Source: an archaeon 13_2_20CM_2_53_6
GTDB taxonomy: Archaea > Thermoproteota > Bathyarchaeia > 40CM-2-53-6
DNA: 64,000 nt
NCBI GenBank assembly: GCA_001915065.1
Contig: MNDT01000006.1
Coordinates: 35,330-99,329, forward strand
Direction: 5' to 3'
The notes beneath the pieces were generated by a model. It ran no database searches, was not told where the DNA came from, and worked only from the letters and a program-made list of their open reading frames with translations. Within the stretch, counting starts at the first letter, position 1; each line of letters begins with the position of its first letter. Positions 1,047 through 33,585 of the stretch are shown one piece after another. A program made the translations under genes and the position numbers.

Positions 1047-1315
1047 TTCTCGACTTCTCCCTGTATGGAGGGACGATTGCTACGTTGTATGTTTAAGCCT
1101 GCGTGTGCGAGGCACGAAGTGACGTCGGGAGAAGTTTGATTTCTCGAGTTGAAGATCTAGAGTGTGATGCTGGTTCGTCTTAGGCTTGCCCAATGATTCC
1201 CTACTGTAACCATAGATTATAATAGTAGCCCCCCGACCTTGAGGTGGTAAGCTTTACCGATTAACGGCTTAGAGGAAATGTAGGAAGGTTAGTGAATTAT
1301 GGAGGTTAAACTTTC

Positions 1316-2593
1316 ATGGTTGAACCGTCGCAGTATGCTTCGACAACAAAGTACATAGTAAAAGCCAAGTTTGATGTAGAGGGCGTAGTCGAAAAGCCTG
1401 ACGTGGTCGGTGCCGTCTTCGGCCAGACAGAAGGCCTCTTCGGCCCAGACCTTGATCTTAGAGAATTACAGAAATCCGGACGAATAGGCCGGATAGAAAT
1501 CAATCTAGATTCAAAGAAAGACAAGACTACCGGCTCAATCGTAATCCCATCCAGCCTAGACAAGGTATCAACGGCCATCATAGCCGCCGCGATCGAGAGC
1601 GTCGACCGGATCGGACCCTGCGAGGCAAAGATCAGCCTAGAGAAAGTCGAGGACGTGAGGGAGGAGAAAAGGAAGGCCATAATGACGAAGGCCAAAGACA
1701 TTCTCAGAAAATGGGTCGTCGAATCCTCACCAAGCACAGAAGAGGTCGTGAAAGAAGTCGCGGGATCTCTGCGAGGAGTCGACGTGATCGAGTATGGGCC
1801 CGAGAAATTACCCGCGGGACCCGAGGCCGAGAGGGGCGATATCATCGTTGTCGAGGGGCGCGCGGATGTCATACTTCTCATGAAGGTCGGCATCAAGAAC
1901 GTAATCGCATTGAACGGGACCAAGGTCCCCGAGACGATCATCAAGCTGACGAAGGACAGAGAGGTCACGGCGTTCCTCGACGGAGACAGGGCAGGCGACC
2001 TGATTCTCAAAGAGCTGACGCAGGTGGCAGACATCGACTATGTCGCCCGCGCCCCCTTCGGGAAAGAGGTAGAGGAGCTTACTCCAAAGGAGGTAATGAG
2101 AGCTCTGAGAGAGCGCGTCCCAGTCAATCTAGCAAAACCAATCGAGAGACAACAGTTCACGCGGCCCGAGAGACCCGAGCGTGCTTATGGGGAGCGGTCC
2201 TACACGGAGAGAGCTTACGGACCCCAGGAGCGGCCGTATGTGCCTGCTGAAGTGCCAGTCCGTGCGGCAGCACCGATGGAAAAGCCGAATCTCCCACCAC
2301 CAGTCTTTGATGCTGCAAAGGACCTACGTGGGACATTGGAGGCGGTAGTCTTCGACGAGGGTGGCAAGGAACTGTCAAAGATGCCTGTTAGCGAGCTTGC
2401 GGAGAAGATACCGACCCTGGACCACGCCCAGGTAGTTCTCTTCGACGGGGTCGTAACTCAGAGGCTTCTCGACACCGCGGCGAGCAAGGGCATCAAATAT
2501 GTGATAGGCGACAGAGTCTCTGACGGGGCCAAGCGGCCCGCGAATGTCAGCGTCATGACTCTCAACGACCTATCCTCGTTCGCTCCTGCCTGA
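1316..2593 (+). CDS. dnaG: Archaeal DnaG primase-like protein (exosome-associated, TOPRIM domain)
   Basis: Characteristic archaeal DnaG N-terminus TKYIVKAKFDVEGVVEKPDVVGAVFGQTEGLFG and LRELQKSGRIGRIEI. TOPRIM residues IIVVEGRADV and FLDGDRAGD. GGAGG lies upstream of the ATG. Confidence 0.9.
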   Translation: MVEPSQYASTTKYIVKAKFDVEGVVEKPDVVGAVFGQTEGLFGPDLDLRELQKSGRIGRIEINLDSKKDKTTGSIVIPSSLDKVSTAIIAAAIESVDRIGPCEAKISLEKVEDVREEKRKAIMTKAKDILRKWVVESSPSTEEVVKEVAGSLRGVDVIEYGPEKLPAGPEAERGDIIVVEGRADVILLMKVGIKNVIALNGTKVPETIIKLTKDREVTAFLDGDRAGDLILKELTQVADIDYVARAPFGKEVEELTPKEVMRALRERVPVNLAKPIERQQFTRPERPERAYGERSYTERAYGPQERPYVPAEVPVRAAAPMEKPNLPPPVFDAAKDLRGTLEAVVFDEGGKELSKMPVSELAEKIPTLDHAQVVLFDGVVTQRLLDTAASKGIKYVIGDRVSDGAKRPANVSVMTLNDLSSFAPA

Positions 2594-4939
2594 GAGACGA
2601 ATCTGCGAAGCTGGTTCGGCCATAAGCTGATCCTCTTTCACGCCAAGGACTTCTAGAATCCGTGCCGCAGCTGGAACGATCTGGTTGTGGACATAATAGT
2701 CGTAATCTATATCGTCCGTAGAGACTCTGTAGTGGGGTTCCGCTTTCTGGTACAGTTTTCCAGGCTTTTTCGTAATGACGAAGCCGACCTTGTCGCCCGC
2801 CGTGACTGACCAGCCTTCCTTCGCCATCTTCTTCGCCGCCTCTACGTGGGGAGCATTGACCTCGTAATCGGCCACTGGCTTTGTGAGTGTCTTCCAGATC
2901 ACATACGCAGACAAGGGTAGGTTCTTGGACCTGACATCCGATGTCAAGTTCTTGACGTACGCTGCCGCCCTAGCCGGCTTCGCATCTTCCAACACCATTC
3001 TTAGAACGTTATTCTGTACATCCCGGGCCAGGTTGGACCAGTCTCCTCGGACCGCCTCAAGGCCTACGACGTCGATCTGACCATCGATTCTCAGCCCAGC
3101 ATACTTCTTCTTGGCCTCGGTGAAGAGTATTCTCTTGTAAACCTCAGATAGGTTGATCTCAAGTCCGAGCTGCCGATCGATCTCGTCTTGGAACTTCTGG
3201 ACAAGTTTCTCATCATAATTCACAAAGAGACTGTCAGTATCTCCATAGAAGACTGTGAGTCCGAGGCTCTTTGCTATTGATATCGCGCGATTGATCGTCT
3301 CTCTTCCGAGGGCAGCCGCTGATTCTGCAACCTCCTTCGAATACCAACGTGCACCGGCCCAGCCAGCGTAGCCGTAGACCGCGTTCGTCATCACCTTCAC
3401 GGCCTTCTCACGGGCCTTAAGCAGAGTATATCGGGGATCGCTCTCGGACGTTCGTTTCAGCTCTGCCTTGGTCGTCTTCCGGGCTTCGATGAGCTTCGTT
3501 AGAACTATTCTGTAGAACCCTGAGGGATTTTTTCTGAAACGATGCGCGACCTCAGGGACTTCGAAGATGTCGTCTGTCTCCTTCCCAGTGACGAGCGTGT
3601 CGGGTGAGATGTTGTACTTGATCATCAAACTGGGGTACATGGAGGAGAAGTCGAGACTAGCTATATTGTCATGGAGCCCTATCTTTGGTTCGAGGACAAT
3701 CGCTCCCTTGTATGGGATAATGGGCTGCTCCATCCTGGAGGGTATGAGCTGGCCGAGGTTGTGGGTCTCCATCATCAGATAATTGTCCACGCGGAATCCA
3801 ACAGCCGCGGCTATCACTTGGTCAGGCGGCAACCCTGAAAGCGCTGACATCTGGATGACATAGTCGATCGCTTCCTGACCTATCTTGAGGATGGCCTCGG
3901 TCTGCTCTTCCACGTGCTTGACGAGATTCTTTCTCTGGTTCAGATTTGACCAGTGTTCGAAGTAGGCTGTCTCATCAATAGGATTCTGACTTGATAATTC
4001 AATTCCCAGATATTTCGCCACATCCTCGATCGTCTTGTTCTTGACCGCGTAGAGGTCGTCGGCGAAGTTGAGAAGGTCAACATTCGCTCGTCCGATCAGC
4101 GAATAATGGCCGTAGAGGCTCTGGTGTGGTGGACCCCCGTCCCGGCCAACCCTGAGGGGAGTCTTGGTCTTGTCAGCCCTCTTGACAAGATACGGCCAGT
4201 GGACACTGTTTCCGTCGAAGGTCAAAACAAAATCAGGATTGGTCTTGGAGACATGGCCCCCGAACTCTCGAATGGTTTCATCGTCGGAGTCGGCCTTGGT
4301 CTGGAGAACTTCGTTCTCGGCCTTGCTTGTTCTCCAGCCGATGATCTGGATCGGGTCCCGTATCGGGCTGGGCGCGCCCGTCTTGCTGACGGATAAAAGT
4401 GAGAAGGAGAAGAGATCTAGTCTAGGTGGTTCTTCCTTCGAGATCGGTTTCGGATGATCTGTAGCTGTAAGGGTTTCTTGGACACTGTAATCTTTTGGAT
4501 CTATCGTTGAGGAGGAGGTGTCCACCTCGTACCATTGACAAGGCTTGATTCCAAAGTCGTACTGGTACTTGATGGCAGATCGGAGCTTCTCCTCGTAGGT
4601 AGCAGCAGCACCAGTTTTTTTCAGCGTGTCGCGCGCAGCTCTCTCCAAAAACTCCGGGTTTTTACAGAATATTTTGAGGACGAAACGTTCCTCGGCTAGC
4701 AGTTTCTTTTTCTCGATTGTCGCATTTTCGATGGTGGGATGGGGCTTTTCCTCTTCCAAGCTCTTCCTGAGATGCTCCGAGTCCTGACCTTCCCTCGGCA
4801 GGAGGTAGAAGTAGGCTCGATAGTTGCTATCAGTGACTAGAACGCGCTTTCCATCATGGGTGATTCCCCAGAGCCAGATCGACGATTTTCCCTGGTAGGT
4901 CTCATGGTTGAGGTCGAGAAGCCAAAACGTCCGTTTCAT
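2570..4939 (-). CDS. polB: Family B DNA polymerase; polymerase motifs intact, exonuclease motifs degenerate
   Basis: Motif A LDFSSMYPS, motif B KVMTNAVYG, motif C YGDTDS. The Exo I/II/III positions read FSFSLL, SVHWPYL and HVEEQ. The start overlaps the stop of the upstream small ORF (TAATG). Confidence 0.9.
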   Translation of the reverse strand: MKRTFWLLDLNHETYQGKSSIWLWGITHDGKRVLVTDSNYRAYFYLLPREGQDSEHLRKSLEEEKPHPTIENATIEKKKLLAEERFVLKIFCKNPEFLERAARDTLKKTGAAATYEEKLRSAIKYQYDFGIKPCQWYEVDTSSSTIDPKDYSVQETLTATDHPKPISKEEPPRLDLFSFSLLSVSKTGAPSPIRDPIQIIGWRTSKAENEVLQTKADSDDETIREFGGHVSKTNPDFVLTFDGNSVHWPYLVKRADKTKTPLRVGRDGGPPHQSLYGHYSLIGRANVDLLNFADDLYAVKNKTIEDVAKYLGIELSSQNPIDETAYFEHWSNLNQRKNLVKHVEEQTEAILKIGQEAIDYVIQMSALSGLPPDQVIAAAVGFRVDNYLMMETHNLGQLIPSRMEQPIIPYKGAIVLEPKIGLHDNIASLDFSSMYPSLMIKYNISPDTLVTGKETDDIFEVPEVAHRFRKNPSGFYRIVLTKLIEARKTTKAELKRTSESDPRYTLLKAREKAVKVMTNAVYGYAGWAGARWYSKEVAESAAALGRETINRAISIAKSLGLTVFYGDTDSLFVNYDEKLVQKFQDEIDRQLGLEINLSEVYKRILFTEAKKKYAGLRIDGQIDVVGLEAVRGDWSNLARDVQNNVLRMVLEDAKPARAAAYVKNLTSDVRSKNLPLSAYVIWKTLTKPVADYEVNAPHVEAAKKMAKEGWSVTAGDKVGFVITKKPGKLYQKAEPHYRVSTDDIDYDYYVHNQIVPAAARILEVLGVKEDQLMAEPASQIRLSGRSERG

Positions 4940-5223
4940 TAGGACTCTCGATCTTCTCGCTCGCTCTCGACTTTGACCATCGAGATAACCACGATTCCTG
5001 CAATGACTAGTGTAAGTCCTGATGGGAGTAAGCTGGCAGTTATGGCCAGAGCTGGATAATAGATGCAGCCACCGGCCGGACAGTTAATCGGATTGGTTAG
5101 CGTGATGACAGTCAGCGTCCCAATCATGGTCAAGATTGTTCCGATTACTATGAAGGCGAATCCAAGAGTCTGGAACGAATGCCTCCAGGCCGGCACCCGG
5201 GTCATTGTTATCTCACCATTCAA
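4939..5223 (-). CDS. Small membrane protein (2-3 TM), translationally coupled to polB
   Basis: Hydrophobic segments FAFIVIGTILTMIGTLTVITL and ITASLLPSGLTLVIAGIVVISMV. Its stop overlaps the polB ATG. Confidence 0.5.
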   Translation of the reverse strand: MNGEITMTRVPAWRHSFQTLGFAFIVIGTILTMIGTLTVITLTNPINCPAGGCIYYPALAITASLLPSGLTLVIAGIVVISMVKVESEREDRES

Positions 5224-5288
5224 CGGCTTGCGAGTAAATGGTTTAAATTCGCCTGATAGGAACCGGGCTCCTCGGGATAGTTGGTATC

Positions 5289-5702
5289 ATGGCGGAGAAG
5301 GTAGACAAGGCCAAGCAGGTCGACCATTGGGGAATCGCGCACATCTACTCCAGTTTCAATAATACGATGGTGCACATTACCGATCTGACTGGTGCTGAGA
5401 CTGTTTCCCGAAGCGCTGGTGGTCAGCATGTCAAGGCTGACCGTCTTCAGGGTACTCCCTATGCGGCTATGCAGGCAGCCGCGGCCGCTGCGAAGGTGGC
5501 TAAGGATAAGGGGATTACTTCTCTCCATATTCGTGTTCGGGCTCCGGGCGGCCACAAGGCCAGGACTCCTGGTCCGGGTGCGCAGGCGGCGATTCGAATG
5601 TTGGCGCGTCAGGGTTTCCGGATCGGAAGAATCGAGGACGTGACTCCGGTTCCCCATGATGGCACTCGTAGGCCGGGCGGCCGTCGCGGTCGCCGCGTCT
5701 AG
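5289..5702 (+). CDS. rps11: 30S ribosomal protein uS11
   Basis: [25 protein letters not shown] and [43 protein letters not shown] are typical uS11. Confidence 0.95.
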
Positions 5703-22931: not shown

Positions 22932-23150
22932 CTATCCAACCTGGCCTTTCTTATCGCTAACGTATAGAGCTGTTCGATACCCTACCATTGCGCCAATGAT
23001 AAGCCCAGATATGAGCCCTGCTATCCCTAGGAGAAGGTACGAGATGAGCCCCGATAAGACGCCTGCGACGATTCCGGCTAGTACGGCATGACCTCGCGGC
23101 CGCCTTACGTCGGATGGTTGGGTCAATTCTGCCCCGCCCCTCTCGAGCAT
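22932..23150 (-). CDS. Small 2-TM membrane protein (72 aa from the internal ATG)
   Basis: Only the C-terminal part of ORF 22932..23516 looks protein-like (AVLAGIVAGVLSGLISYLLLGIAGLISGLIIGAMVGY). The upstream 120 codons are R/S/C-rich and unlikely to be coding. Confidence 0.4.
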   Translation of the reverse strand: MLERGGAELTQPSDVRRPRGHAVLAGIVAGVLSGLISYLLLGIAGLISGLIIGAMVGYRTALYVSDKKGQVG

Positions 23151-23555
23151 CTGTCTCTTATTATTGCTCCGCAAGCTGCGCGGAGAATCCCGATGCCACC
23201 AATCACATGTGAGTGGTTTGGTGCTCCCTAAGTCTTGAACCCTAGAAGAAACCTCGAAAAAACACGAGTCGGTGTTGCTGCTGCGACAGCTATTTTTCTC
23301 TTGCGATTGTGATAAAACTCGTCTTGTCCCCTCTTCGGGGTCGGTGGTTTGGTGACCGCGCCGGCACGAGCTACCGAATTCAGTAGTCCTGCACTCTACC
23401 GTCCCAAGAAGGTCAGGGCAGACGTCGCCCTCTCTTGTAATCGAGTTCTCGAGTTGGCTACGAAATTTCACTGTTCTGACGGTGAACCTGGCGGCACTAC
23501 GTGACGTGAAAGGCATAACGCGTTCAAGGACCTTGTCCGGTCAGACGTAGCGGCC

Positions 23556-23957
23556 CTATTGAACGACTATCCTGCTAAGGATGAAGTAGAAGCCGACCCC
23601 GACCACGACGACGGAAATGGCTAGGATCAAAGTCCCGTACAGTCCCCTGTCCTTGTATGATTGGAACCAGGGGTGAAACTCGACGATGACAAGAACAGCA
23701 GGAACGATTAGTAGCTTGATCATCCAGCCCCAAGGCGTATTCCATGTCAGCCGAGCCAACGGATTCCCCTCTACTCCTACTCCATAGCGAGACACGAGAG
23801 CCCAAGTTTGGAAATAGTCTACGTATTGAAGAATGGCCGCCAACAGGAAGGGGCGAAGAAAGAGAGACCGTTGCTGAACCATCTCAGGTTCACTTCTGTC
23901 CTTCATCAAATCATTGTTGGTGGTCGGCGTTCCGCTAGAGTCAATAGGCCACACCAT
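23556..23957 (-). CDS. Multi-TM membrane protein (DUF5658-like)
   Basis: Four hydrophobic helices and an EGNPL motif (YGVGVEGNPLARL), as recalled for DUF5658. Lies 57 nt downstream of the HerA-like gene. Confidence 0.5.
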   Translation of the reverse strand: MVWPIDSSGTPTTNNDLMKDRSEPEMVQQRSLFLRPFLLAAILQYVDYFQTWALVSRYGVGVEGNPLARLTWNTPWGWMIKLLIVPAVLVIVEFHPWFQSYKDRGLYGTLILAISVVVVGVGFYFILSRIVVQ

Positions 23958-24014
23958 AGGCTGTCGAGGCCGTCTGGCTGTATCTGAATGAGCCCCCTGC
24001 TCAGTTTCTACTCT

Positions 24015-25442
24015 CTAGGAGAAGAACATTCGTGTTTCTCCCATAGTTCTGACATCTAGCTGTTCAACGTCGACCATTAGGGGTAGGTCGTGGACCACGT
24101 TTCCTAGAAGAAGGCATCTTCTCGCTGGGGTCCCTTTGATCAATGAGCGAATTGTCTCGCTGTCGGACTTTGCTACTTTGCCGATTGTTTCTATGTCGTG
24201 TTCGTTTGTGAAGTTGAATATGAAGACGTTGTCGGCTTGTCGATAGATCGTCTCCTGTACAGTGTCAGGTTGGTTCGTGATGAACGTTGTGAAGAGGCCG
24301 ATGTGGCGCATTCGAGTGATGATGTCGTCCCAGTAAGTCTCTCTAAGATAGAGGTGAGCTTCCTCGGCGAAAAGGAACGCGGCTCGGAGCCAGTTCGACG
24401 AGAGAATCTTCGTAAGCTCGCCTAGGAATATCTCTACGAGTATTCGTCGGACAATGTGGCTCTGGTTCTTGAGATTCACTACCAGGATTCCGCCACCTTC
24501 GATTGCGTGGAGAATCTTCTCTTCGGTCAACGGGTTTGTTTCGTCGTAGAAGAGACCCGACTCTGACAGCACTTGGAGTCTTGAGATTAGTGCCTCTCTA
24601 ACACTCTCGTGACAGCTCCAAGACTGGACCGTCTGGATCAGACTCGGAAGGGTAAGGTCTGCTCTCAACTCTAGTTCTCGCCAGATCGTGCTGAACACCT
24701 TCGACGAGGTTGCTGGAAGGTCTAGGGCGTTGCTCAGGACCCCGGACATTGTTCGTAAGCCTAGCTTCGCTAGGGCGAAGTTAATGCCGCTACGCGGTGC
24801 GAGCACTGTGAGCCTCGACGATGACAAGCGTCCGTCCTTAGACTTGTGCAGGTTGACGTATTCTCCGTTCACGTCCAAGACAACGCATGGGGCCCCTAGT
24901 CCGCTCATAGACAGAAGTAGAAGCTTCGCAAGGTGGGACTTGCCGGTGCCCTTCCGGCCGGTGATGATGTTCAGGCCACCGTCCAGTGCGCTGGCGTCGA
25001 TCTGTATGGGGTCGCCGTCGTTGTAGCCGACTTTGAGTGGCAGTTTCCCTCCATTCATGATGAGACGGTTGACCGGGTAGGGGCGGATTCGTGAGGAGGT
25101 CCGTGACGGGAGCCAGGATGTGGTCGGCGAGAGGTCTTTTTCTCCTGTGATTGTTCCTCGTATTTTGCAGACCGCGAGCCGTGTGTCCTTCAGAGCATCT
25201 ACTTCGCTGGAGATATTCAACGGGTCCATGTCTTCGCCAGCTAGCTCTCCGTCAGTCATCACGTCTCTGAGGATATCCTCTAGAATTCCTGGAACGTTGG
25301 CATACTGCAGATCAATGACCTGGACGAGAAGGCCCTTGCCGAGTCCCGCGTCTTCGATCAGGAAATAGTCGCCACGTTGTATGTGTTCGTCAGGGAAAGC
25401 GATGATCTGGATCTGGTCGCCTTCTTTCCGGTAGATGCGCAT
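24015..25442 (-). CDS. HerA-like (DUF87/FtsK-HerA superfamily) ATPase
   Basis: N-terminal barrel-like region (IQIIAFPDEHIQRGDYFLIEDAGLGKGLLVQVIDL), Walker A ITGRKGTGKSHLAKL, and Walker B-like AAFLFAEEAHLYL. The start lies 2 nt after the stop of the NurA-like gene. Confidence 0.75.
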   Translation of the reverse strand: MRIYRKEGDQIQIIAFPDEHIQRGDYFLIEDAGLGKGLLVQVIDLQYANVPGILEDILRDVMTDGELAGEDMDPLNISSEVDALKDTRLAVCKIRGTITGEKDLSPTTSWLPSRTSSRIRPYPVNRLIMNGGKLPLKVGYNDGDPIQIDASALDGGLNIITGRKGTGKSHLAKLLLLSMSGLGAPCVVLDVNGEYVNLHKSKDGRLSSSRLTVLAPRSGINFALAKLGLRTMSGVLSNALDLPATSSKVFSTIWRELELRADLTLPSLIQTVQSWSCHESVREALISRLQVLSESGLFYDETNPLTEEKILHAIEGGGILVVNLKNQSHIVRRILVEIFLGELTKILSSNWLRAAFLFAEEAHLYLRETYWDDIITRMRHIGLFTTFITNQPDTVQETIYRQADNVFIFNFTNEHDIETIGKVAKSDSETIRSLIKGTPARRCLLLGNVVHDLPLMVDVEQLDVRTMGETRMFFS

Positions 25443-25444
25443 TG

Positions 25445-26551
25445 CTAGGCCACGTACCTGCTGGTCCCAAAGGGTCCGAAGAGTGACCGCCGGATGCTGG
25501 GGCGTGACTGGAGTGTGATGTGGTGATTTGAGGCGACGAAGCGTTGGATTGCAAGAATCTCGTTGGCCGTAAAGGTGCTGAATATGTGGGCGATTCTCAA
25601 CGTTTCAGGATATCCGTGGAAGATCACGTCAGTGCCGGATAATCGTCCGAGGGCGAGCTGTGTCTCTTCCTCGGTGGATTCTCGGTCAATGTCTGTTCTG
25701 AACAGGAATCCGTCGCTCGACAGCTTCGCGACATAGACCCGGCCTAGGAATCTCACTGGGTAGGGAGGATACTCCTCCTCGACCAGAGGAGTGATGTCCA
25801 ATAGGTGTGGGACGCTGTCGTCGTTTGAGAGTCCGAGAATGTTTCTTCCCCCGACTGTTAGCTGGGTTGACTTGGATATCCCGATGACAATCGAATTGTT
25901 GCTCCGAGCAGTCGCGAGGATGTTGTTGACGCGTGCGGCCGGATTGTCAGGGGTTCCTGCCGTGAGAGACCCGTCGATGAGGAGTATCCCGTCTTTGAGG
26001 GTTTCCGAGAGGACTTCTTGGACCCAGCGTTCGACATGGTTTCGGAGGCGTGTTAGTACCCTGAGGGTTTTGAGTGAGAGTCCGCCGAACGCCCTAGCCT
26101 CGTCGTCCCGGTACTGTCTTGAATCCTCGGAATTCGGCACATGGAATAGGAGGGGACCCCATCGATTGTAGAGTATCCTACCGGTCTGTCTCGAGACCGC
26201 GACCGCTCGGATGGCGAATATCATCCCGGTGTCTGTCTCGCCGATCTTGACGCTGGACGCGTCGCACGCGACGATCGGGACCTGCTCCTTAACGGGGCTG
26301 ATTGGACTCCGTTTCAAATCCGAGGAAGCGAACGAGGCTCCGATGTCGAGTCTCTCCTCCAGGTCGGCATCGTCAACCCCCATTTCGACAAGCGAGACTG
26401 GTCTCGGGTTGAATTTTGAGCCTTGGAGCCTGTTCATTGACCGGTTGGAGAGCTCGACCAGCGAGTCTGGTATGCCGGGGAGCCCGAGCCTTTCCGGTAT
26501 GCTTTTAATTTGGAGTAGAGGTTCAGTAACCTCTTGGGTGCGGTGGAGCAA
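25445..26551 (-). CDS. NurA-like nuclease
   Basis: NurA-type motifs VACDASSVKI (first Asp motif) and DGILLIDGSLTAG. Size and position directly upstream of a HerA-like ATPase also fit. Confidence 0.6.
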   Translation of the reverse strand: MLHRTQEVTEPLLQIKSIPERLGLPGIPDSLVELSNRSMNRLQGSKFNPRPVSLVEMGVDDADLEERLDIGASFASSDLKRSPISPVKEQVPIVACDASSVKIGETDTGMIFAIRAVAVSRQTGRILYNRWGPLLFHVPNSEDSRQYRDDEARAFGGLSLKTLRVLTRLRNHVERWVQEVLSETLKDGILLIDGSLTAGTPDNPAARVNNILATARSNNSIVIGISKSTQLTVGGRNILGLSNDDSVPHLLDITPLVEEEYPPYPVRFLGRVYVAKLSSDGFLFRTDIDRESTEEETQLALGRLSGTDVIFHGYPETLRIAHIFSTFTANEILAIQRFVASNHHITLQSRPSIRRSLFGPFGTSRYVA

Positions 26552-26618
26552 GGTTAGAATCCCCTGTTTTCAGACGGGAAACCCCCCTTTCCCGTCTGAC
26601 CCCGCACCCTCTTCCATA

Positions 26619-27164
26619 TCATCCTGAAGCAGCCACCGGCCTCTCACGAGGCGTACTAGCAGCGCGGGCAGTGAGACCCTTCGCAATCTCATGCGCCTTC
26701 CGGATTCCCTGAATGCTAAGCTTGTAACCACCATCTGCGGTCCGGTCAATGATCCCCGTCTTCGTCATCATAGCTAGGGTGTTCCGGACAGTCTTCACCG
26801 CCTTCCCTATTGCCCGGCTGATCGCCTCCGGGTCCATCTCAACGCTCGGCCTAGTGCCGACCGCATGTGCGACCCTGGCAGCTAGCAATACCATGGCAAT
26901 CGAGCTTTCCGCCGACATCTCTGGCTTCAACAGGACCGCTTCACCCTCGGGCGTGAGTTGGACAGCGCTGGAGAGGTCGTCGACCATTGATGAGTAGTCC
27001 GGCGAGAAGGTCAGCTTCGACGCCAGGGAATAGTTCGGTAGCACCTTGGCGGCGAACTGCATAACCTCTCGGACGACCGTCTCCAAGTCGCCCTCTGCTG
27101 TGTGTTTGATGTCTCCCCACTCTATCGAGACCTTGATCTTAGGCTGTTCTGACATGATCCTCAC
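26619..27164 (-). CDS. Winged-helix protein, paralog A of a three-member family
   Basis: N-terminal IKVSIEWGDIKHTAEGDLETVVREV, a central TPEGEAVLL segment, and a C-terminal wHTH AISRAIGKAVKTVRNTLAMMTKTGIIDRTADGGYKLS. Collinear similarity to 27161..27709. Confidence 0.6.
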   Translation of the reverse strand: MRIMSEQPKIKVSIEWGDIKHTAEGDLETVVREVMQFAAKVLPNYSLASKLTFSPDYSSMVDDLSSAVQLTPEGEAVLLKPEMSAESSIAMVLLAARVAHAVGTRPSVEMDPEAISRAIGKAVKTVRNTLAMMTKTGIIDRTADGGYKLSIQGIRKAHEIAKGLTARAASTPRERPVAASG

Positions 27165-27709
27165 CTATCCGGAAGCTGCGAGACCCGTGGCATCAGGTCC
27201 TTCATGATGACTCTGGTACCCATGGTAGTCAGCCGGTACGAACCCTTGCCAACCCGCTCGACGAGCTGCTCGTTGCAGAGCTCGCTCAACCTCCCTGCGA
27301 CAGTGCCAGTAGATCGTCCTGTTGTTTTCGTAATCTCGTCCAAGGACAGAGTGTCACTCTCTCTCCTCGCGAGCTGATGTAGAAGGCGGGACCCGGCGAG
27401 ATGAACCATCAAGAGCTCCTTATCTTTGAGGCCCTCCAAGTTCTTCAAAACGACCAATCCTTCAGGTGAGGTCGCCAAGATTCCGGGACAGCTCTGAAGG
27501 AATTCCGCGCTGTCAACGGAGAGAACGAGCCTGGAGACGAGTTCTATCGAAGGGTAGATCTTTGAGAAGTATGAGATTAGCTCCCTCAGAACCGATTCAG
27601 GGCTACCGATTATCCGATTCTCCATGCCAGAGTGCTTTACTGTGACCTCAATCGCTGAGGATGGCTCGGCTGTACTGGGTTTTCGTTCGACGATTTCGAG
27701 TCCTGACAT
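27161..27709 (-). CDS. Winged-helix protein, paralog B
   Basis: IEVTVKHSGMENRIIGSPESVLREL, SPEGLVVLK, and the wHTH LDEITKTTGRSTGTVAGRLSELCNEQLVERVGKGSYRLT. It overlaps paralog A by 4 nt. Confidence 0.6.
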   Translation of the reverse strand: MSGLEIVERKPSTAEPSSAIEVTVKHSGMENRIIGSPESVLRELISYFSKIYPSIELVSRLVLSVDSAEFLQSCPGILATSPEGLVVLKNLEGLKDKELLMVHLAGSRLLHQLARRESDTLSLDEITKTTGRSTGTVAGRLSELCNEQLVERVGKGSYRLTTMGTRVIMKDLMPRVSQLPDR

Positions 27710-27776
27710 TTTTTCCTCTTGCCCGTTGGCTTTGCAGAGTTGAGATATAACGCTTTTCTGTCCCGATACTTTGACA

Positions 27777-27861
27777 ACAAGGTGTTACTTTGGGAATCGG
27801 GAATGAAAGTGAAAGTATTTCGGTTCAGCAGCATAACCGGGCGTCATGACAAGGTGTTACT
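27777..27861. promoter_or_regulatory. Two copies of a 13-nt direct repeat ACAAGGTGTTACT in a divergent intergenic region (candidate operator)
   Basis: Perfect copies at 27777-27789 and 27849-27861, both preceded by TGAC. They lie between the operon start (27709, minus strand) and the 82-aa wHTH gene (27957, plus strand). Confidence 0.4.
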
Positions 27862-27956
27862 ATTAGCCGGACAGGTGAACCGCATAGTTTCTGGGATAAA
27901 CTCTAAGAATGAACAATAATCGCTCGACCGAGCGAGAGTGGTAGGGGATTGGATCT

Positions 27957-28205
27957 TTGGATTACAACCAGTTGAAGATACGGATCCTCAACCTCTTCCA
28001 TGGGTCCCAGGAGCTCGCGAGCGAAGAGATTCTCAAGCTTCTTCAAGAATCGAAGGTTGAGTCATCCGATAAGGCTGTGAAGATGGCGTTAATGCGTTAC
28101 TCGCGTCAGGGGCTATTGGCTCGGGGCAAGAAGGCAGGAGTCTTTCACTACCGGTTGACGGAGAAAGGGTTGGCCCGACGAAATTGGTTGTCCAAGACTA
28201 GGTGA
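27957..28205 (+). CDS. Small winged-helix transcription regulator
   Basis: 82 aa. ASEEILKLLQESKVESSDKAVKMALMRYSRQGLLARGKKAGVFHYRLTEKG is a typical wHTH with a wing. Confidence 0.6.
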   Translation: MDYNQLKIRILNLFHGSQELASEEILKLLQESKVESSDKAVKMALMRYSRQGLLARGKKAGVFHYRLTEKGLARRNWLSKTR

Positions 28206-28698
28206 CTTTCTGCAGACGGGGTAGCACATCGTTCTGAATCCACTGAACACCCGCCCCAGAGAGGACGTAGTTCCCACGCTCAGTGATAACTTTCCCCTCT
28301 CTCCGAAGCTCGCTTATCCTCGCTCTCACAATGCTCTCACCTGTCGTTTTCCATGATGAGCTGAGAAGTGAGCTGAGGTCATCATCCCCCAGAGGCTTTG
28401 GGTGCAGGGAAAACATCACGAGCGAGATCGCCTCTTTAGCCGACAATGTATCGACCGGGACTGTGAGGTGTGGCTTGCCTTCGGATGTGAATTCGACAAT
28501 TCCAGCAATTCCGACCGTAGATTCAGGATCTGGCGCAATGCTGGGCTGTGGTTCTGTACTCCGAGGAACGCCCCCGACGGGTCTTAGGGAACTTTCTAGT
28601 TCCTCAAACTGGTTCTTGACATAGTCGAAATCTCCTTCGAGCTCAACCTCGAAATCGCCCCGGCGAATTCTGAACTTGAGCTTCTTCTCTGACGACAA
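28198..28698 (-). CDS. Winged-helix protein, divergent paralog C
   Basis: LKFRIRRGDFEVELEGDFDYVKNQFEEL, FTSEGKPHLTV, and the wHTH GESIVRARISELRREGKVITERGNYVLS. Same three-part layout as paralogs A and B. Confidence 0.55.
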   Translation of the reverse strand: MSSEKKLKFRIRRGDFEVELEGDFDYVKNQFEELESSLRPVGGVPRSTEPQPSIAPDPESTVGIAGIVEFTSEGKPHLTVPVDTLSAKEAISLVMFSLHPKPLGDDDLSSLLSSSWKTTGESIVRARISELRREGKVITERGNYVLSGAGVQWIQNDVLPRLQKVT

Positions 28699-29673: not shown

Positions 29674-29793
29674 GCGGCCGTAGTCTAGCCTGGTCTAGGA
29701 CATAGCCCAGCGCGTCCAGTGGCCTTCCAAGCCAACGACCCGGGAGACCATCAAATCGGTGGTCCGGGAATTCAAATCCCGGCGGCCGCACCA
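29674..29793 (+). tRNA. tRNA-Gly (anticodon UCC) with two predicted non-canonical introns and an encoded CCA
   Basis: Acceptor GCGGCCG/CGGCCGC, UA, and D arm GUCU-AGCCUGGUCUA-GGAC. Removing 29704-29719 (16 nt) and 29745-29770 (26 nt) gives anticodon arm UUGGC-CUUCCAA-GCCAA, a 4-nt variable loop CGAC, T arm CCGGG-UUCAAAU-CCCGG, discriminator A and CCA. Folded by hand only. Confidence 0.75.
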
Positions 29794-29800
29794 CAATAAT
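29787..29800. repeat. 14-nt direct repeat CGCACCACAATAAT (att-like core, copy 1, overlapping the tRNA 3' end)
   Basis: Identical to 32341-32354. Followed by (CA)6 at 29801-29812. Confidence 0.5.
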
Positions 29801-31775: not shown

Positions 31776-32348
31776 CTAAACCCACGAATAGGAAGAAGAC
31801 CATCCAATGCGAAATCTGTGGCGCGATCTTAGTGCCCTTTTCGTCAGAACTCTCTTCCATAGGATCTTTCCAGGAAATCCAGGTTGATCGATCGAAAAGG
31901 CGAATGGTCGGATAGTTTGCCGCGTCTGACATTGGATGATGTTATAGTGTGAGTTTAGTATAGGTGTTAGAGGGGGGTGGTAGTGTGCTAGGGGGAAATG
32001 GTTTTTCTTCTCCTCTAGGTGTTTGGCGGCGAGTAGTTGTTTTCTGAGTTCTTCGTTCTCCTTTTTTGGGTCTGCGAACATTTGGCGTAGTTGTTCCATG
32101 GCTTGGTAGGCTTGTCTGCCTTCTTCCAGTCGTAGTTTCTCGACTTCGAGGCGGGCCTTCTCTACATCGAGGAGTTCTACTGTCTCGGGTGGTGCTTGCA
32201 TGAACAACATGCGTGGTTCTACCATCTTCTTCCAGTCTGCGGCGACCTGGTCGATTACTGGGATGTAGTGTGCTTGTGTGCTTCGCTTGCCGTGTCCTAC
32301 CATCTGCTTGACTACATCGGCGGGGAAACCGGTGTGTGTGCGCACCAC
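31776..32348 (-). pseudogene. Truncated tyrosine recombinase: C-terminal catalytic fragment only
   Basis: VRTHTGFPADVVKQMVGHGKRSTQAHY matches box II of tyrosine recombinases (Arg, His, and the Tyr nucleophile 9 residues after His). No N-terminal or core domain lies upstream. The frame closes at 32391-32393. The rest of the ORF is a coiled-coil-like tail of doubtful significance. Confidence 0.55.
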
Positions 32349-32354
32349 AATAAT
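32341..32354. repeat. 14-nt direct repeat CGCACCACAATAAT (att-like core, copy 2)
   Basis: Identical to 29787-29800. Preceded by GTGTGTGTG at 32332-32340. It encodes IIVVR within the recombinase fragment frame. Confidence 0.5.
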
Positions 32355-32361
32355 GTCGTCG

Positions 32362-33585
32362 TTACGATTCTTGGAAGACAGTTGTATAGATCAGCCTGTG
32401 GAACCAGTGAGGGCCTAGTTCTTCTCGAGGAGCGAATCGGCCTCTGGGTGCGAAGCCGGATCGCGCGCCCTTGCCTACGAGGCTGATCGCTTCTATATCC
32501 TCAGCGTCGACTTGTTCGTTGAGCCAGACCTTGTTTCTTTGGTTGAACTTCGCTTCGTCCAATGAATATTGGAACCAGTGAAACCTGGTCCTATCAGGTC
32601 TTCCCTGCACCGGCATATGCTGGTTAACAGAAAGGCCCATGGGTAGAAGTTGAGGGTAGTGTTGGGAAAGATGAACCACCAGAGGGCGAAGACCCGCTTG
32701 TCGCCATCGTTGGGATCCTTGAACCGAGTCACAACTTGTTCCGGAGCAAACCCTTCCTTCGGTCGGCGAGCATAAGCCCACTGTAGCGCACTATATTGAT
32801 GGAGTTCTGTCGTGTACGTTTCTAGGTCAATAGCGTCAGCCAGTCCTCCAGGTCCTTTATGGACGAAGCGAATGTGATAATTGTCCATGTAGTTCCAAGC
32901 ATGCTGCTTCCAATTACCGTCAACCTCTCGGACCTCATCGGCAACCGGTCTGTACTTGAAGGACTCAAGGTCGATTCCAGGGATAGACTCCTTGACGTTT
33001 TCTATAATCTTCTTGAAAGGTGCCAAGGGCTCTCCTAGGCATAGAAGTGAGCGGACCCCAGTTCTCAACAAGCAGTTTTCTTAGATTGTCAGACTCTCTC
33101 GGGAAATCCTCTAGCTTCTCAAAGCCCTCGTGAGATACGAATCTTCCCTCAGAGTCAAACTCACGTCCGTGTTGGGGGCAGACAATGGAGCCGCCGATGC
33201 TGGCCGATTCTACGAGAGGATGCCAAGCATCGGTGCAGACGTTCGGAAAGCAGTTGATTTCCCTTTTGGAGTTCGTTTGAAGGAAGAGAGGTTTTCCCAA
33301 GAGCGAGAATGGGACTCGGGAACCCGGTTTGCGGAGAAGTTCGGAGAAGTCTGTTGAACGAACAGGTGAGTCATGATGAGGGACGAGCATCCAGGTCCTG
33401 TTGAAAATCGTTCCTAATTCGAATTCGAGAAAGTCGGAGTCTACGAACGCTAAATCTGGCAATGATTCCGCTCTTCTAATATCTGGATCTACGAGGAAGT
33501 CTTTGTTCGAGAACTCCCGCATAATAGAAATCCAACCTTTCGCACAAAAAACGCGAAGGGTCTTGTATATAGTGACATGAGTCAA
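32362..33585 (-). pseudogene. Rieske non-heme iron oxygenase alpha-subunit-like gene disrupted by two frameshifts
   Basis: Three collinear ORF pieces (33585-32965, 33071-32493, 32781-32362). They carry a Rieske-like CTDAWHP...CPQHG, the catalytic DNYHIRFVH, and C-terminal FPNTTLNFYPW / GLSVNQ...EDIEAISLVGKGARSG...HWFHRL. The frame switches near 33055 and near 32640. Confidence 0.7.

Follow-up and report, generated by a model that had tools for sequence, protein, structure and literature searches.

Which partners bring a HerA-NurA motor-nuclease to its DNA when Mre11 and Rad50 are not encoded beside it? The question is raised by an operon in a 64,000-nucleotide (nt) stretch of contig MNDT01000006.1 from the bathyarchaeal genome 13_2_20CM_2_53_6 (this whole stretch is referred to here as the window), where three small paralogous winged helix-turn-helix (wHTH) proteins, designated A, B, and C, are encoded upstream of a NurA-like nuclease and a HerA-like ATPase. 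We hold, with moderate confidence, that this is a vertically inherited HerA-NurA DNA-processing operon of the class Bathyarchaeia in which the small proteins would form a hetero-oligomeric wHTH adaptor, a role of the recombination or repair type being favored; that cellular role is the least certain part of the interpretation. HerA-NurA is regarded as central to archaeal recombination, yet how it finds its substrate, and whether end resection is its true role, are open questions even in model systems (PMC7690668, PMC12977600).

Nuclease and ATPase of the operon

The open reading frame (ORF) table of the window placed all ORFs at the coordinates given in a first-pass annotation made from the sequence alone, and the tight packing described there was confirmed (Table 1). 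The reading frames of A and B overlap by 4 nt, 67 nt separate B from the nuclease gene, and the ATG of the ATPase gene (25442) lies 2 nt past the nuclease stop codon, whereas the corresponding genes overlap by 1 to 4 nt in the related loci L007 and L009 (L numbers denote related loci and P numbers related proteins). The nuclease and the ATPase are presumably coupled.

Both proposed enzyme identities held at Pfam cut-offs. The 368-amino-acid (aa) protein matched the Pfam NurA model (PF09376) with 29.4 bits (gathering cut-off, 21) through residues 93 to 322, covering model positions 3 to 249 of 254, and the same model was matched by all 38 sampled orthologs (best E value, 2.6e-10). Among these 38 sequences, D97, the D193-G-S-L motif, D287, D289, and H322 were invariant and E105 nearly so; from their pattern of conservation, these acidic and histidine residues probably correspond to the published catalytic residues of NurA.

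The 475-aa protein matched PF01935 (DUF87, the HerA central domain) with 43.9 bits (4e-11; cut-off, 23.2) and the solved Sulfolobus HerA structure (PDB 4d2i) at an E value of 1.9e-5 over residues 158 to 469, which places it inside the HerA/FtsK superfamily, as had been suggested. Its best PDB sequence match was the ATPase of Sir2-HerA (8j4u; E = 9.4e-7). The Walker A motif GxxGTGKSH, the Walker B motif FAEEAH with its catalytic Glu, the Arg-containing motif TRMRH, and the motifs NQP and RQADN were invariant in 74 orthologs, which were 45% to 92% identical across the class (median, 53%). Against models of named families, the ATPase scored 12.8 and 18.4 bits for the canonical archaeal HerA equivalogs of NCBIfam (NF040819 and NF040937; cut-offs, 970 and 800), 39.8 bits for HerA_antiphage (2e-10; cut-off, 800), and 31.2 bits for CedD (9e-8; cut-off, 600), and the PADLOC matches to mad8 (1.3e-12) and HerA (4e-10) were likewise far under the family cut-offs. 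With scores so far below the cut-offs for canonical HerA, defense HerA, and CedD, the ATPase is, as judged from sequence, a distinct subfamily of the HerA clade and not an ortholog of any named one. Matches to TrwB/VirB4-like P-loop proteins were weak, there was no match to Pfam FtsK_SpoIIIE, and no Pfam HAS-barrel match was obtained at an E value of ≤1, although the N-terminal 150 aa are conserved.

Distribution and synteny

A species-level scan, with one genome per species and an alignment of five NurA-like proteins as the query, identified a NurA-like relative in 457 genome stretches. The best 80 of these 457 stretches all belonged to Bathyarchaeia (a few in bins mislabeled bacterial) and included a complete 2.17-Mb chromosome; of these loci, 76 were evaluable downstream of the nuclease gene and 56 had at least 3 kb of upstream sequence. 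A HerA-like gene directly follows the NurA gene in 76/76 evaluable loci. Upstream, 50 of the 56 loci encode same-strand members of the A/B/C family within 5 kb, their number being two (20 loci), three (23 loci), or four (7 loci). The gene order, whose recurrence in other archaeal genomes and metagenomes had been left to be checked, is thus widely repeated. The six remaining loci (L075, L077, L081, L084, L087, and L089) represent one sublineage of Bathyarchaeia and carry NurA-HerA with no detectable family member in the 3.5 to 5 kb upstream; in L075, DnaK and DnaJ genes lie upstream of the pair. The paralogs of these six loci may have been relocated in the genome or lost.

Closer relatives of the ATPase, numbering in the hundreds and 83% to 98% identical, are encoded on soil contigs labeled Bathyarchaeota or "Crenarchaeota archaeon 13_1_…". 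The cassette of a 182-aa protein, a protein of ~179 aa, NurA, and the ATPase recurs on long contigs of related genomes, surrounded by genes for SMC-ScpAB, GatDE, Elp3, a PALP enzyme, a PyrK-like protein, and ribosomal protein S30; the thermosome, TBP, and ribosomal proteins are also encoded near the operon. Directly relevant to the suggestion that the cluster might track with defense islands is the gene content downstream of the ATPase in ~50 loci, where a PyrK-like oxidoreductase (21 loci) and a NUDIX protein (13 loci) were most frequent, an integrase and a Cas12f-like gene occurred as single instances, and neither defense nor integrase genes were enriched. With these housekeeping neighbors, tracking with defense islands was not observed.

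DNA repair genes were not enriched downstream of the ATPase either. The only recurrent neighbor of this kind was Ogg, an 8-oxoguanine DNA glycosylase, encoded directly after the HerA-like gene in L094 (4375-5043) and L095 (11384-12121) and overlapping it in the latter; a gene for an AP-endonuclease-like protein follows the ATPase gene in L009 alone.

Beyond Bathyarchaeia, the NurA/HerA subfamily with preceding family members was found on a contig labeled "Nitrososphaerota archaeon" (L095), whose ATPase is 38% identical to that of the window (E = 3e-114), and contigs of Candidatus Wolframiiraptor carry three consecutive small genes and then end. The module is also present in unrelated metagenomes, and no member of the A/B/C family was found in a scan of viral contigs. 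Judging from this distribution, the module has been passed on vertically throughout Bathyarchaeia, and its range extends to the Nitrososphaerota-labeled and Wolframiiraptor lineages. Module contigs or proteins also occur in metagenome-assembled genomes with bacterial labels (L011, L015, L060, L082, P0133, and P0140; "bacterium Centralia_MAG_577," Dormiibacterota/Dormibacteraeota, Acidoferrum, and Acidiferrales), which are likely cases of bin contamination or mislabeling.

As first noted from the operon itself, Mre11 and Rad50 are not encoded nearby: no mre11 or rad50 gene was found in the 64-kb window, where the sole SMC-like ORF is a genuine SMC with a hinge, followed by ScpA and ScpB, and none was found in ~90 related loci, as far as their flanks are covered. 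The accompanying premise, that herA-nurA normally sits with mre11-rad50 in archaea, holds for the (hyper)thermophilic archaea in which the four genes are clustered (PMC7690668) and was worded too strongly, since HerA-NurA pairs without Mre11-Rad50 were already known in Deinococcus (PMC12977600).

A family of small winged-helix proteins

BLASTP comparisons relate A to B (E = 4e-13 over ~155 aa) and C to B (2e-7, through the N-terminal half) and to A (5e-6, through the C-terminal wHTH), in agreement with their description as three paralogs; the window holds exactly three members of the family. The AlphaFold2 (AF2) model of A has a predicted local distance difference test (pLDDT) value of 81 overall and of 87 to 98 for residues 71 to 190 (in 10-residue blocks). 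It consists of a β-hairpin and a helix (residues 20 to 51), a pair of short helices, another hairpin where the conserved PEG motif lies (residues 78 to 87), and, within residues 96 to 177, a long helix, the wHTH, and a C-terminal helix. Foldseek matched the wHTH half only, namely, to MarR, ArsR/SmtB, IclR, and the centromere-binding protein AspA of pNOB8 (probability, 1.0; template modeling score, ~0.7 on the target), and the C-terminal winged helix predicted for the paralogs is supported accordingly. The portion comprising the N-terminal β-hairpin and helix and the PEG hairpin amounts to ~90 residues.

That the paralogs belong to no known family, as the first-pass annotation had it, was also seen in profile searches. 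Pfam and NCBIfam matches of A and B were to wHTH models and below threshold (the best in Pfam were PF25213, with 26.3 bits against 35, and MarR_2, with 20.3 against 27), those in PADLOC involved only the generic wHTH parts of CARF, Csa3, and AbiEi models (best, 8e-6), and C had no match in Pfam, NCBIfam, or PADLOC. An A/B/C profile retrieved only generic wHTH matches from the PDB. In 1.84 billion representative sequences, an exhaustive profile search found 324 clusters (defined at 50% identity) at E values of ≤1e-3 and 149 at ≤1e-10, most members being full-length proteins of 160 to 175 aa. A, B, and C are thus members of an unannotated family that combines a small N-terminal β-hairpin/helix domain with a MarR/ArsR-like wHTH.

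Clustering of 201 family members from the loci yielded position-specific groups: (i) the B-type, next to NurA (65 genes); (ii) the A-type, one step upstream (59 and 12 genes); and (iii) the X1 (36 genes) and X2 groups, which occupy positions -3 and -4. The architectures were X1-A-B (25 loci), A-B (13 loci), X2-A-B (12 loci), X2-A (10 loci), and X1-X2-A-B (9 loci); the window has the X1-A-B architecture, with C as X1. The duplications are therefore older than the class radiation, and the groups have kept their order, which, as reconstructed from the extant loci, was X1-X2-A-B in the ancestor. B is 77% to 84% identical in relatives; C has an 85% identical ortholog in the same position in L001 and is absent from L003; and the wHTH of A is near-invariant among orthologs. 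This near-invariance and the strong conservation of the ATPase are, at the level of sequence comparison, the mark of purifying selection.

Family members are also fused to other domains. The metagenomic protein P0306 (535 aa) has a Ser/Thr kinase domain followed by two tandem PEG-hairpin and wHTH halves, and P0375 and P0405 have a full A/B/C-type module after an N-terminal region of ~200 aa that has no Pfam match and whose "PDG…YELK" signature resembles that of PD-(D/E)xK-like proteins. In L090 (positions 1094 to 5592; ENA ERZ27256501, contig k141_4062102), such a fusion of the module with a PD-(D/E)xK-like region belongs to a cluster of four linked genes, the others encoding an XPB/ERCC3-type helicase, a 141-aa half-module protein, and a 258-aa protein made of an unannotated N-terminal region and the family wHTH. 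This cluster is possibly a separate helicase-nuclease or defense-like system that uses the same DNA-binding module. The fusions to a kinase and to a PD-(D/E)xK-like region suggest that the A/B/C module is a DNA-targeting unit that can be attached to different DNA enzymes.

A further type of small protein (137 to 165 aa), with the N-terminal hairpin motif of the family and a different wHTH, was seen in L009, L079, L094, L095, and L097. Its gene lies on the opposite strand in the Nitrososphaerota-labeled and Wolframiiraptor loci, either just before NurA (L095) or before a downstream gene truncated by the contig end (L096 and L097).

Probable regulator, operator, and promoter

The 82-aa wHTH gene reported to diverge from the operon is present and is conserved in relatives. 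Its product has weak wHTH matches in Pfam (PaaX, HTH_12, and Penicillinase_R), and the gene, which is convergent with that of C (8-nt overlap) and separated from that of A by a 247-bp intergenic region, is conserved and divergent in L001 and L003 and occurs in 28 of 56 loci. The intergenic region contains two exact direct copies of the 13-mer AGTAACACCTTGT at a spacing of 72 nt, and the window holds no further exact copy. With up to two mismatches allowed, the motif was present in 26 of the 28 loci with the 82-aa gene and in none of the 28 without it, and 0 of 100 shuffles reached four such matches. The B recognition element (BRE)/TATA-like element GAAAAGCGTTATAT lies ~40 nt upstream of the start of A, and GAGG is located just 5' of the ATG; we infer that GAAAAGCGTTATAT is the promoter of gene A. 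In an alignment of nine relatives, the AGTAACACCTTGT copies, the GAAAAGCGTTATAT element, and the block CGAAATACTTTCACTTTCATTCCC were near-invariant, and the last of these might serve as an additional binding site, perhaps one for A/B/C proteins.

The 82-aa protein is probably a lineage-specific regulator of the operon, inserted between X1 and A, with AGTAACACCTTGT as its operator; here, the association is what the loci display, and binding is the predicted part. The presence of a separate, dedicated regulator with its own predicted operator makes it less likely that A, B, and C merely regulate the operon. Where a lineage lacks the 82-aa gene, a search of the sequence preceding the first paralog found no shared operator-like element.

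TABLE 1 Genes and sequence elements of the operon and its vicinity (window positions, except where a locus is named)
Feature	Position	Strand	Evidence
Paralog C (X1-type, position -3), 166 aa	28198..28698	-	BLASTP to B, 2e-7; to A, 5e-6
Divergent wHTH protein, 82 aa, between C and A	27957..28205	+	Weak wHTH matches; kept in relatives
Putative operator AGTAACACCTTGT, 13 nt, distal copy	27849..27861	-	Exact direct repeat
Conserved noncoding block CGAAATACTTTCACTTTCATTCCC, 24 nt, between the operator copies	27799..27822	-	Alignment of 9 relatives
Putative operator AGTAACACCTTGT, 13 nt, proximal copy	27777..27789	-	Exact direct repeat
BRE/TATA-like element GAAAAGCGTTATAT	27745..27758	-	Read from sequence; alignment of 9 relatives
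Paralog A (A-type, position -2), 182 aa	27161..27709	-	AF2 model; BLASTP
Paralog B (B-type, position -1 before NurA), 181 aa	26619..27164	-	BLASTP to A, 4e-13
NurA-domain nuclease, 368 aa	25445..26551	-	Pfam NurA, 29.4 bits
HerA-like hexameric-type P-loop ATPase, 475 aa, last gene of operon	24015..25442	-	Pfam DUF87, 43.9 bits
tRNA-Gly(TCC) with two introns, neighbor and not a functional part	29674..29794	+	Alignment to L070; spliced ARAGORN call
Further small-protein type	L009 2803-3252; L094 1348-1797; L079 4014-4511; L095 8476-8955 (-); L097 2390-2803 (-)		

Proposed mechanism and alternative explanations

By analogy with canonical HerA-NurA, a HerA hexamer bearing a docked NurA dimer would thread and degrade DNA at the expense of ATP. 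The small paralogs may form a hetero-oligomeric, DNA-binding adaptor, held together by the N-terminal domain that they share; this adaptor would recognize the DNA substrate (ends, structure, or sequence) and recruit or gate the motor-nuclease, a role that Mre11-Rad50 may play at least in part in the canonical system. In the sublineage of the window, transcription would be controlled by the 82-aa wHTH protein via the two AGTAACACCTTGT operators upstream of the BRE/TATA element of A. The cellular role is likely housekeeping DNA end processing, recombination, or repair. An adaptor role is proposed because of the fixed gene order, the overlapping frames, the ancient subfunctionalized paralogs, the separate regulator, and the enzyme fusions. 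More tentatively, and with a probability well short of even, up to four or five wHTH paralogs, joined in a hetero-oligomer, might replace Mre11-Rad50 as the substrate recognition module of HerA-NurA in Bathyarchaeia and related Thermoproteota, forming a DNA-processing holoenzyme not recognized before, and other nucleases, helicases, and kinases would have acquired the same wHTH module, more than once, to direct them to their targets.

Several observations weigh against the adaptor interpretation. In 6 of 56 loci, the NurA-HerA pair had no detectable paralog within 5 kb upstream, so that the two need not occur together in cis, and a homolog from Nitrososphaerales is solitary, located beside a HEPN/MNT pair and away from any NurA-HerA. 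The N-terminal part of the paralogs had no match in Pfam, NCBIfam, the PDB, or BFVD by profile or Foldseek searches, and an oligomerizing role for it is a guess. The NurA fold (RNase H/PIWI-like) of the nuclease is a prediction from sequence: the AF2 single-sequence model of the NurA-like protein reached a pLDDT of only 32, and its profile had no match among PDB sequences. Finally, end resection has been questioned by a recent study even for canonical HerA-NurA (PMC12977600).

The small paralogs could be ordinary transcription factors, i.e., autoregulators or regulators of a local regulon, which precede a divergent but standard HerA-NurA repair pair and form no adaptor complex. Their only recognizable part is a MarR/ArsR-type wHTH, wHTH regulators often head operons, and both the solitary Nitrososphaerales homolog and the six loci lacking adjacent paralogs would fit, but regulators would hardly account for two to four ancient paralogs kept in a fixed order over class-level divergence or for overlapping A and B frames, which suggest stoichiometric coproduction. 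Where regulation is visible, a dedicated regulator with a covarying operator is already present; elsewhere, no common operator precedes the first paralog; and family members are fused to enzymes. We consider this explanation unlikely. A defense system of the HerA-effector type, in which the wHTH proteins would sense viral or plasmid DNA and NurA-HerA would destroy it, is judged to be quite unlikely. Outside Pfam, it is true, the best profile matches of the ATPase are defense-associated HerA models (PADLOC and NCBIfam), its best PDB sequence match comes from Sir2-HerA, and fused relatives lie within the defense-like cluster of L090; canonical HerA-NurA was itself proposed in 2026 to destroy foreign double-stranded DNA (PMC12977600). 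Yet the model scores are far under the cut-offs (39.8 versus 800 bits), NurA and C have no PADLOC match, with A and B giving generic wHTH matches only, and the operon is near class-wide, apparently single-copy, syntenic, strongly conserved in sequence, and surrounded by housekeeping genes rather than enriched for defense or integrase genes downstream, with the A/B/C family absent from viral contigs.

Improbable, in our estimate, is a chromosome-handling translocase, an archaeal analogue of FtsK in segregation or dimer resolution, whose wHTH paralogs would read orienting sequences in trans as FtsK gamma reads KOPS. wHTH readers in multiple copies are reminiscent of FtsK gamma, and SMC-ScpA-ScpB genes lie within 7 to 8 kb in the window and in L001. 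HerA and FtsK also share one superfamily, FtsK being absent from archaea (PMC12977600, discussion). Against this stand the coupling in 76/76 loci to a nuclease with invariant catalytic residues, the lack of a Pfam match to FtsK_SpoIIIE, and the fact that no repeated chromosomal motif was identified; the proximity to SMC carries no weight, since only the soil lineage has it and L007, L009, and L095 do not. Least credible by far is an apparatus for DNA import or export, Ced-like or conjugative, that would use the downstream membrane proteins. The 31-bit match to CedD, the TrwB/VirB4-like P-loop matches, and the DUF5658 membrane protein directly downstream are what recommends it, but the CedD cut-off is 600, the membrane genes are not conserved in any related locus, and the downstream neighbors elsewhere are cytoplasmic housekeeping enzymes. 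A role in DNA uptake is essentially excluded. Of the functions first suggested for the cluster, namely, defense, DNA uptake, and mobile-element maintenance, none is indicated, and a DNA-processing operon with a putative wHTH adaptor is the interpretation that we retain.

Flanking chromosome and the tRNA-Gly gene

The operon is embedded in ordinary chromosomal surroundings. On one side of it, the window encodes a DnaG-type primase, PolB, SHMT, SMC-ScpA-ScpB, UPP synthase, and PNP and, on the other, FKBP, an aminotransferase, a NUDIX protein, ribosomal protein S8e, PALP, a PyrK-like protein, Elp3, GatD, GatE, and GlmS. In the relatives L001 and L003, the block PALP, PyrK-like, GT2, Elp3, GatD, and GatE directly follows the ATPase gene, whereas it is located here at 44 to 54 kb; the segment from the ATPase to a HAD hydrolase is inverted in the window compared to the relatives, a rearrangement that leaves the module intact. 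Two small genes for multiple-transmembrane proteins had been reported downstream of the ATPase. That at 23556-23957 indeed encodes a DUF5658 membrane protein, directly downstream; the other, 22932-23150, is only the C-terminal part of a 194-aa ORF (22932-23516). Neither the 194-aa ORF nor the DUF5658 protein had a homolog in any of the ~90 related loci, and since they are not conserved, these genes are not part of the module.

A conserved 15-mer that precedes the module in relatives pointed to a tRNA-Gly(TCC) gene. This gene aligns over its full length with the tRNA-Gly(TCC) that ARAGORN calls in L070, except for inserts of 16 nt (29704-29719) and 26 nt (29745-29770), and ARAGORN calls a perfect cloverleaf from the insert-free sequence, while in the unspliced window no tRNA was called by ARAGORN or by Rfam at any threshold; the two introns are at noncanonical positions. 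The 5' 22-mer of the tRNA is found, in divergent orientation, upstream of the module in 26 loci from distant lineages, and the adjacency of tRNA and module therefore represents synteny of ancestral origin.

On the 3' side of the tRNA, ~4.5 kb (29.8 to 34.3 kb) is missing from L001. A 14-nt exact direct repeat, CGCACCACAATAAT, overlaps the tRNA 3' end (29787-29800) and recurs 2.5 kb away (32341-32354), where it falls at the first codons (IIVVR) of ORF 31776-32348 on the minus strand. The N terminus of this ORF product, "VVRTHTGF…VGHGKRSTQAHY," contains what we take to be a likeness of the C-terminal box of tyrosine recombinases. The ORFs to the right of the tRNA had no integrase or viral match in PHROGs and no integrase match in Pfam, and the reading as an integrase fragment accordingly rests on the 14-nt repeat and the motif likeness. 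Together with the ~4.5 kb missing from L001, they suggest a decayed SSV-type integration into tRNA-Gly on its far (3') side, with the module not included. The tRNA integration site posited in the first-pass annotation is thus plausible, and the tRNA-Gly gene exists, but the putative remnant excludes the module; the view of the cluster as part of an accessory or mobile stretch did not hold, given the class-wide fixed order, the housekeeping neighbors, the ancestral tRNA-Gly synteny, and the absence of the A/B/C family from viral contigs. Within the lineage-specific stretch, a Rieske [2Fe-2S] domain and the catalytic domain of a ring-hydroxylating dioxygenase alpha subunit are encoded by overlapping minus-strand ORFs in different frames (32493-33071 and 32965-33585), probably reflecting a frameshifted pseudogene or a sequencing error.

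Comparison with known systems

As in canonical archaeal HerA-NurA (Sulfolobus, Pyrococcus, and Thermococcus), a NurA-domain gene is coupled here to a HerA-family gene, the motifs are conserved, and the operon is chromosomal and conserved and so probably of the essential type. Unlike the canonical mre11-rad50-herA-nurA operon, it has no adjacent mre11 or rad50 and has two to four wHTH paralogs that the canonical operon lacks, and the ATPase remains at 12.8 to 18.4 bits against equivalog cut-offs of 800 to 970. The HerA-NurA pair of Deinococcus-Thermus, a minimal end resection machinery, is likewise without adjacent Mre11-Rad50; there, however, the extra element is a regulatory N-terminal extension of NurA rather than separate wHTH proteins, and the pair described here is archaeal and of a different subfamily. 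The anti-phage systems Sir2-HerA and DUF4297-HerA also combine a HerA-family ATPase with an effector enzyme, which in our operon is NurA; those systems occur in patchy defense islands, whereas the present module is class-wide, syntenic, and vertically inherited, with scores far under their cut-offs.

FtsK with its gamma winged helix is similarly a motor of the same superfamily with winged-helix DNA readers, but in the present operon the readers are proteins of their own and come in several paralogous forms, the motor is coupled with a nuclease, and FtsK_SpoIIIE is not matched. MarR/ArsR-type proteins and AspA of pNOB8 share the fold of the C-terminal half of A, B, and C, from which they differ in that the N-terminal 90 residues of the paralogs are unmatched, the Pfam wHTH scores are under the cut-off, and the paralogs are genomically tied to NurA-HerA. 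In the openly searchable literature, which leaves subscription-only comparative genomics and arCOG annotations outside its scope, we found no description of the wHTH family, its partnership with NurA-HerA, or the regulator-operator pair. With HerA-NurA already known without Mre11-Rad50, what we did not find described, and what appears new, is the obligatory-looking partnership with wHTH paralogs, the family itself, and the regulator-operator pair.

Significance

A set of DNA-binding partners that is genetically linked to HerA-NurA throughout a lineage would provide a concrete handle on substrate recognition by this motor-nuclease, and a likely context can now be assigned to an unannotated protein family that comprises over 300 sequence clusters. 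In an uncultured and globally abundant archaeal class, a probable regulator and its operator have been identified. The operon also indicates that a system of the HerA type can belong to the core chromosome instead of being defense associated, which matters because automated pipelines score such ATPases against defense models.

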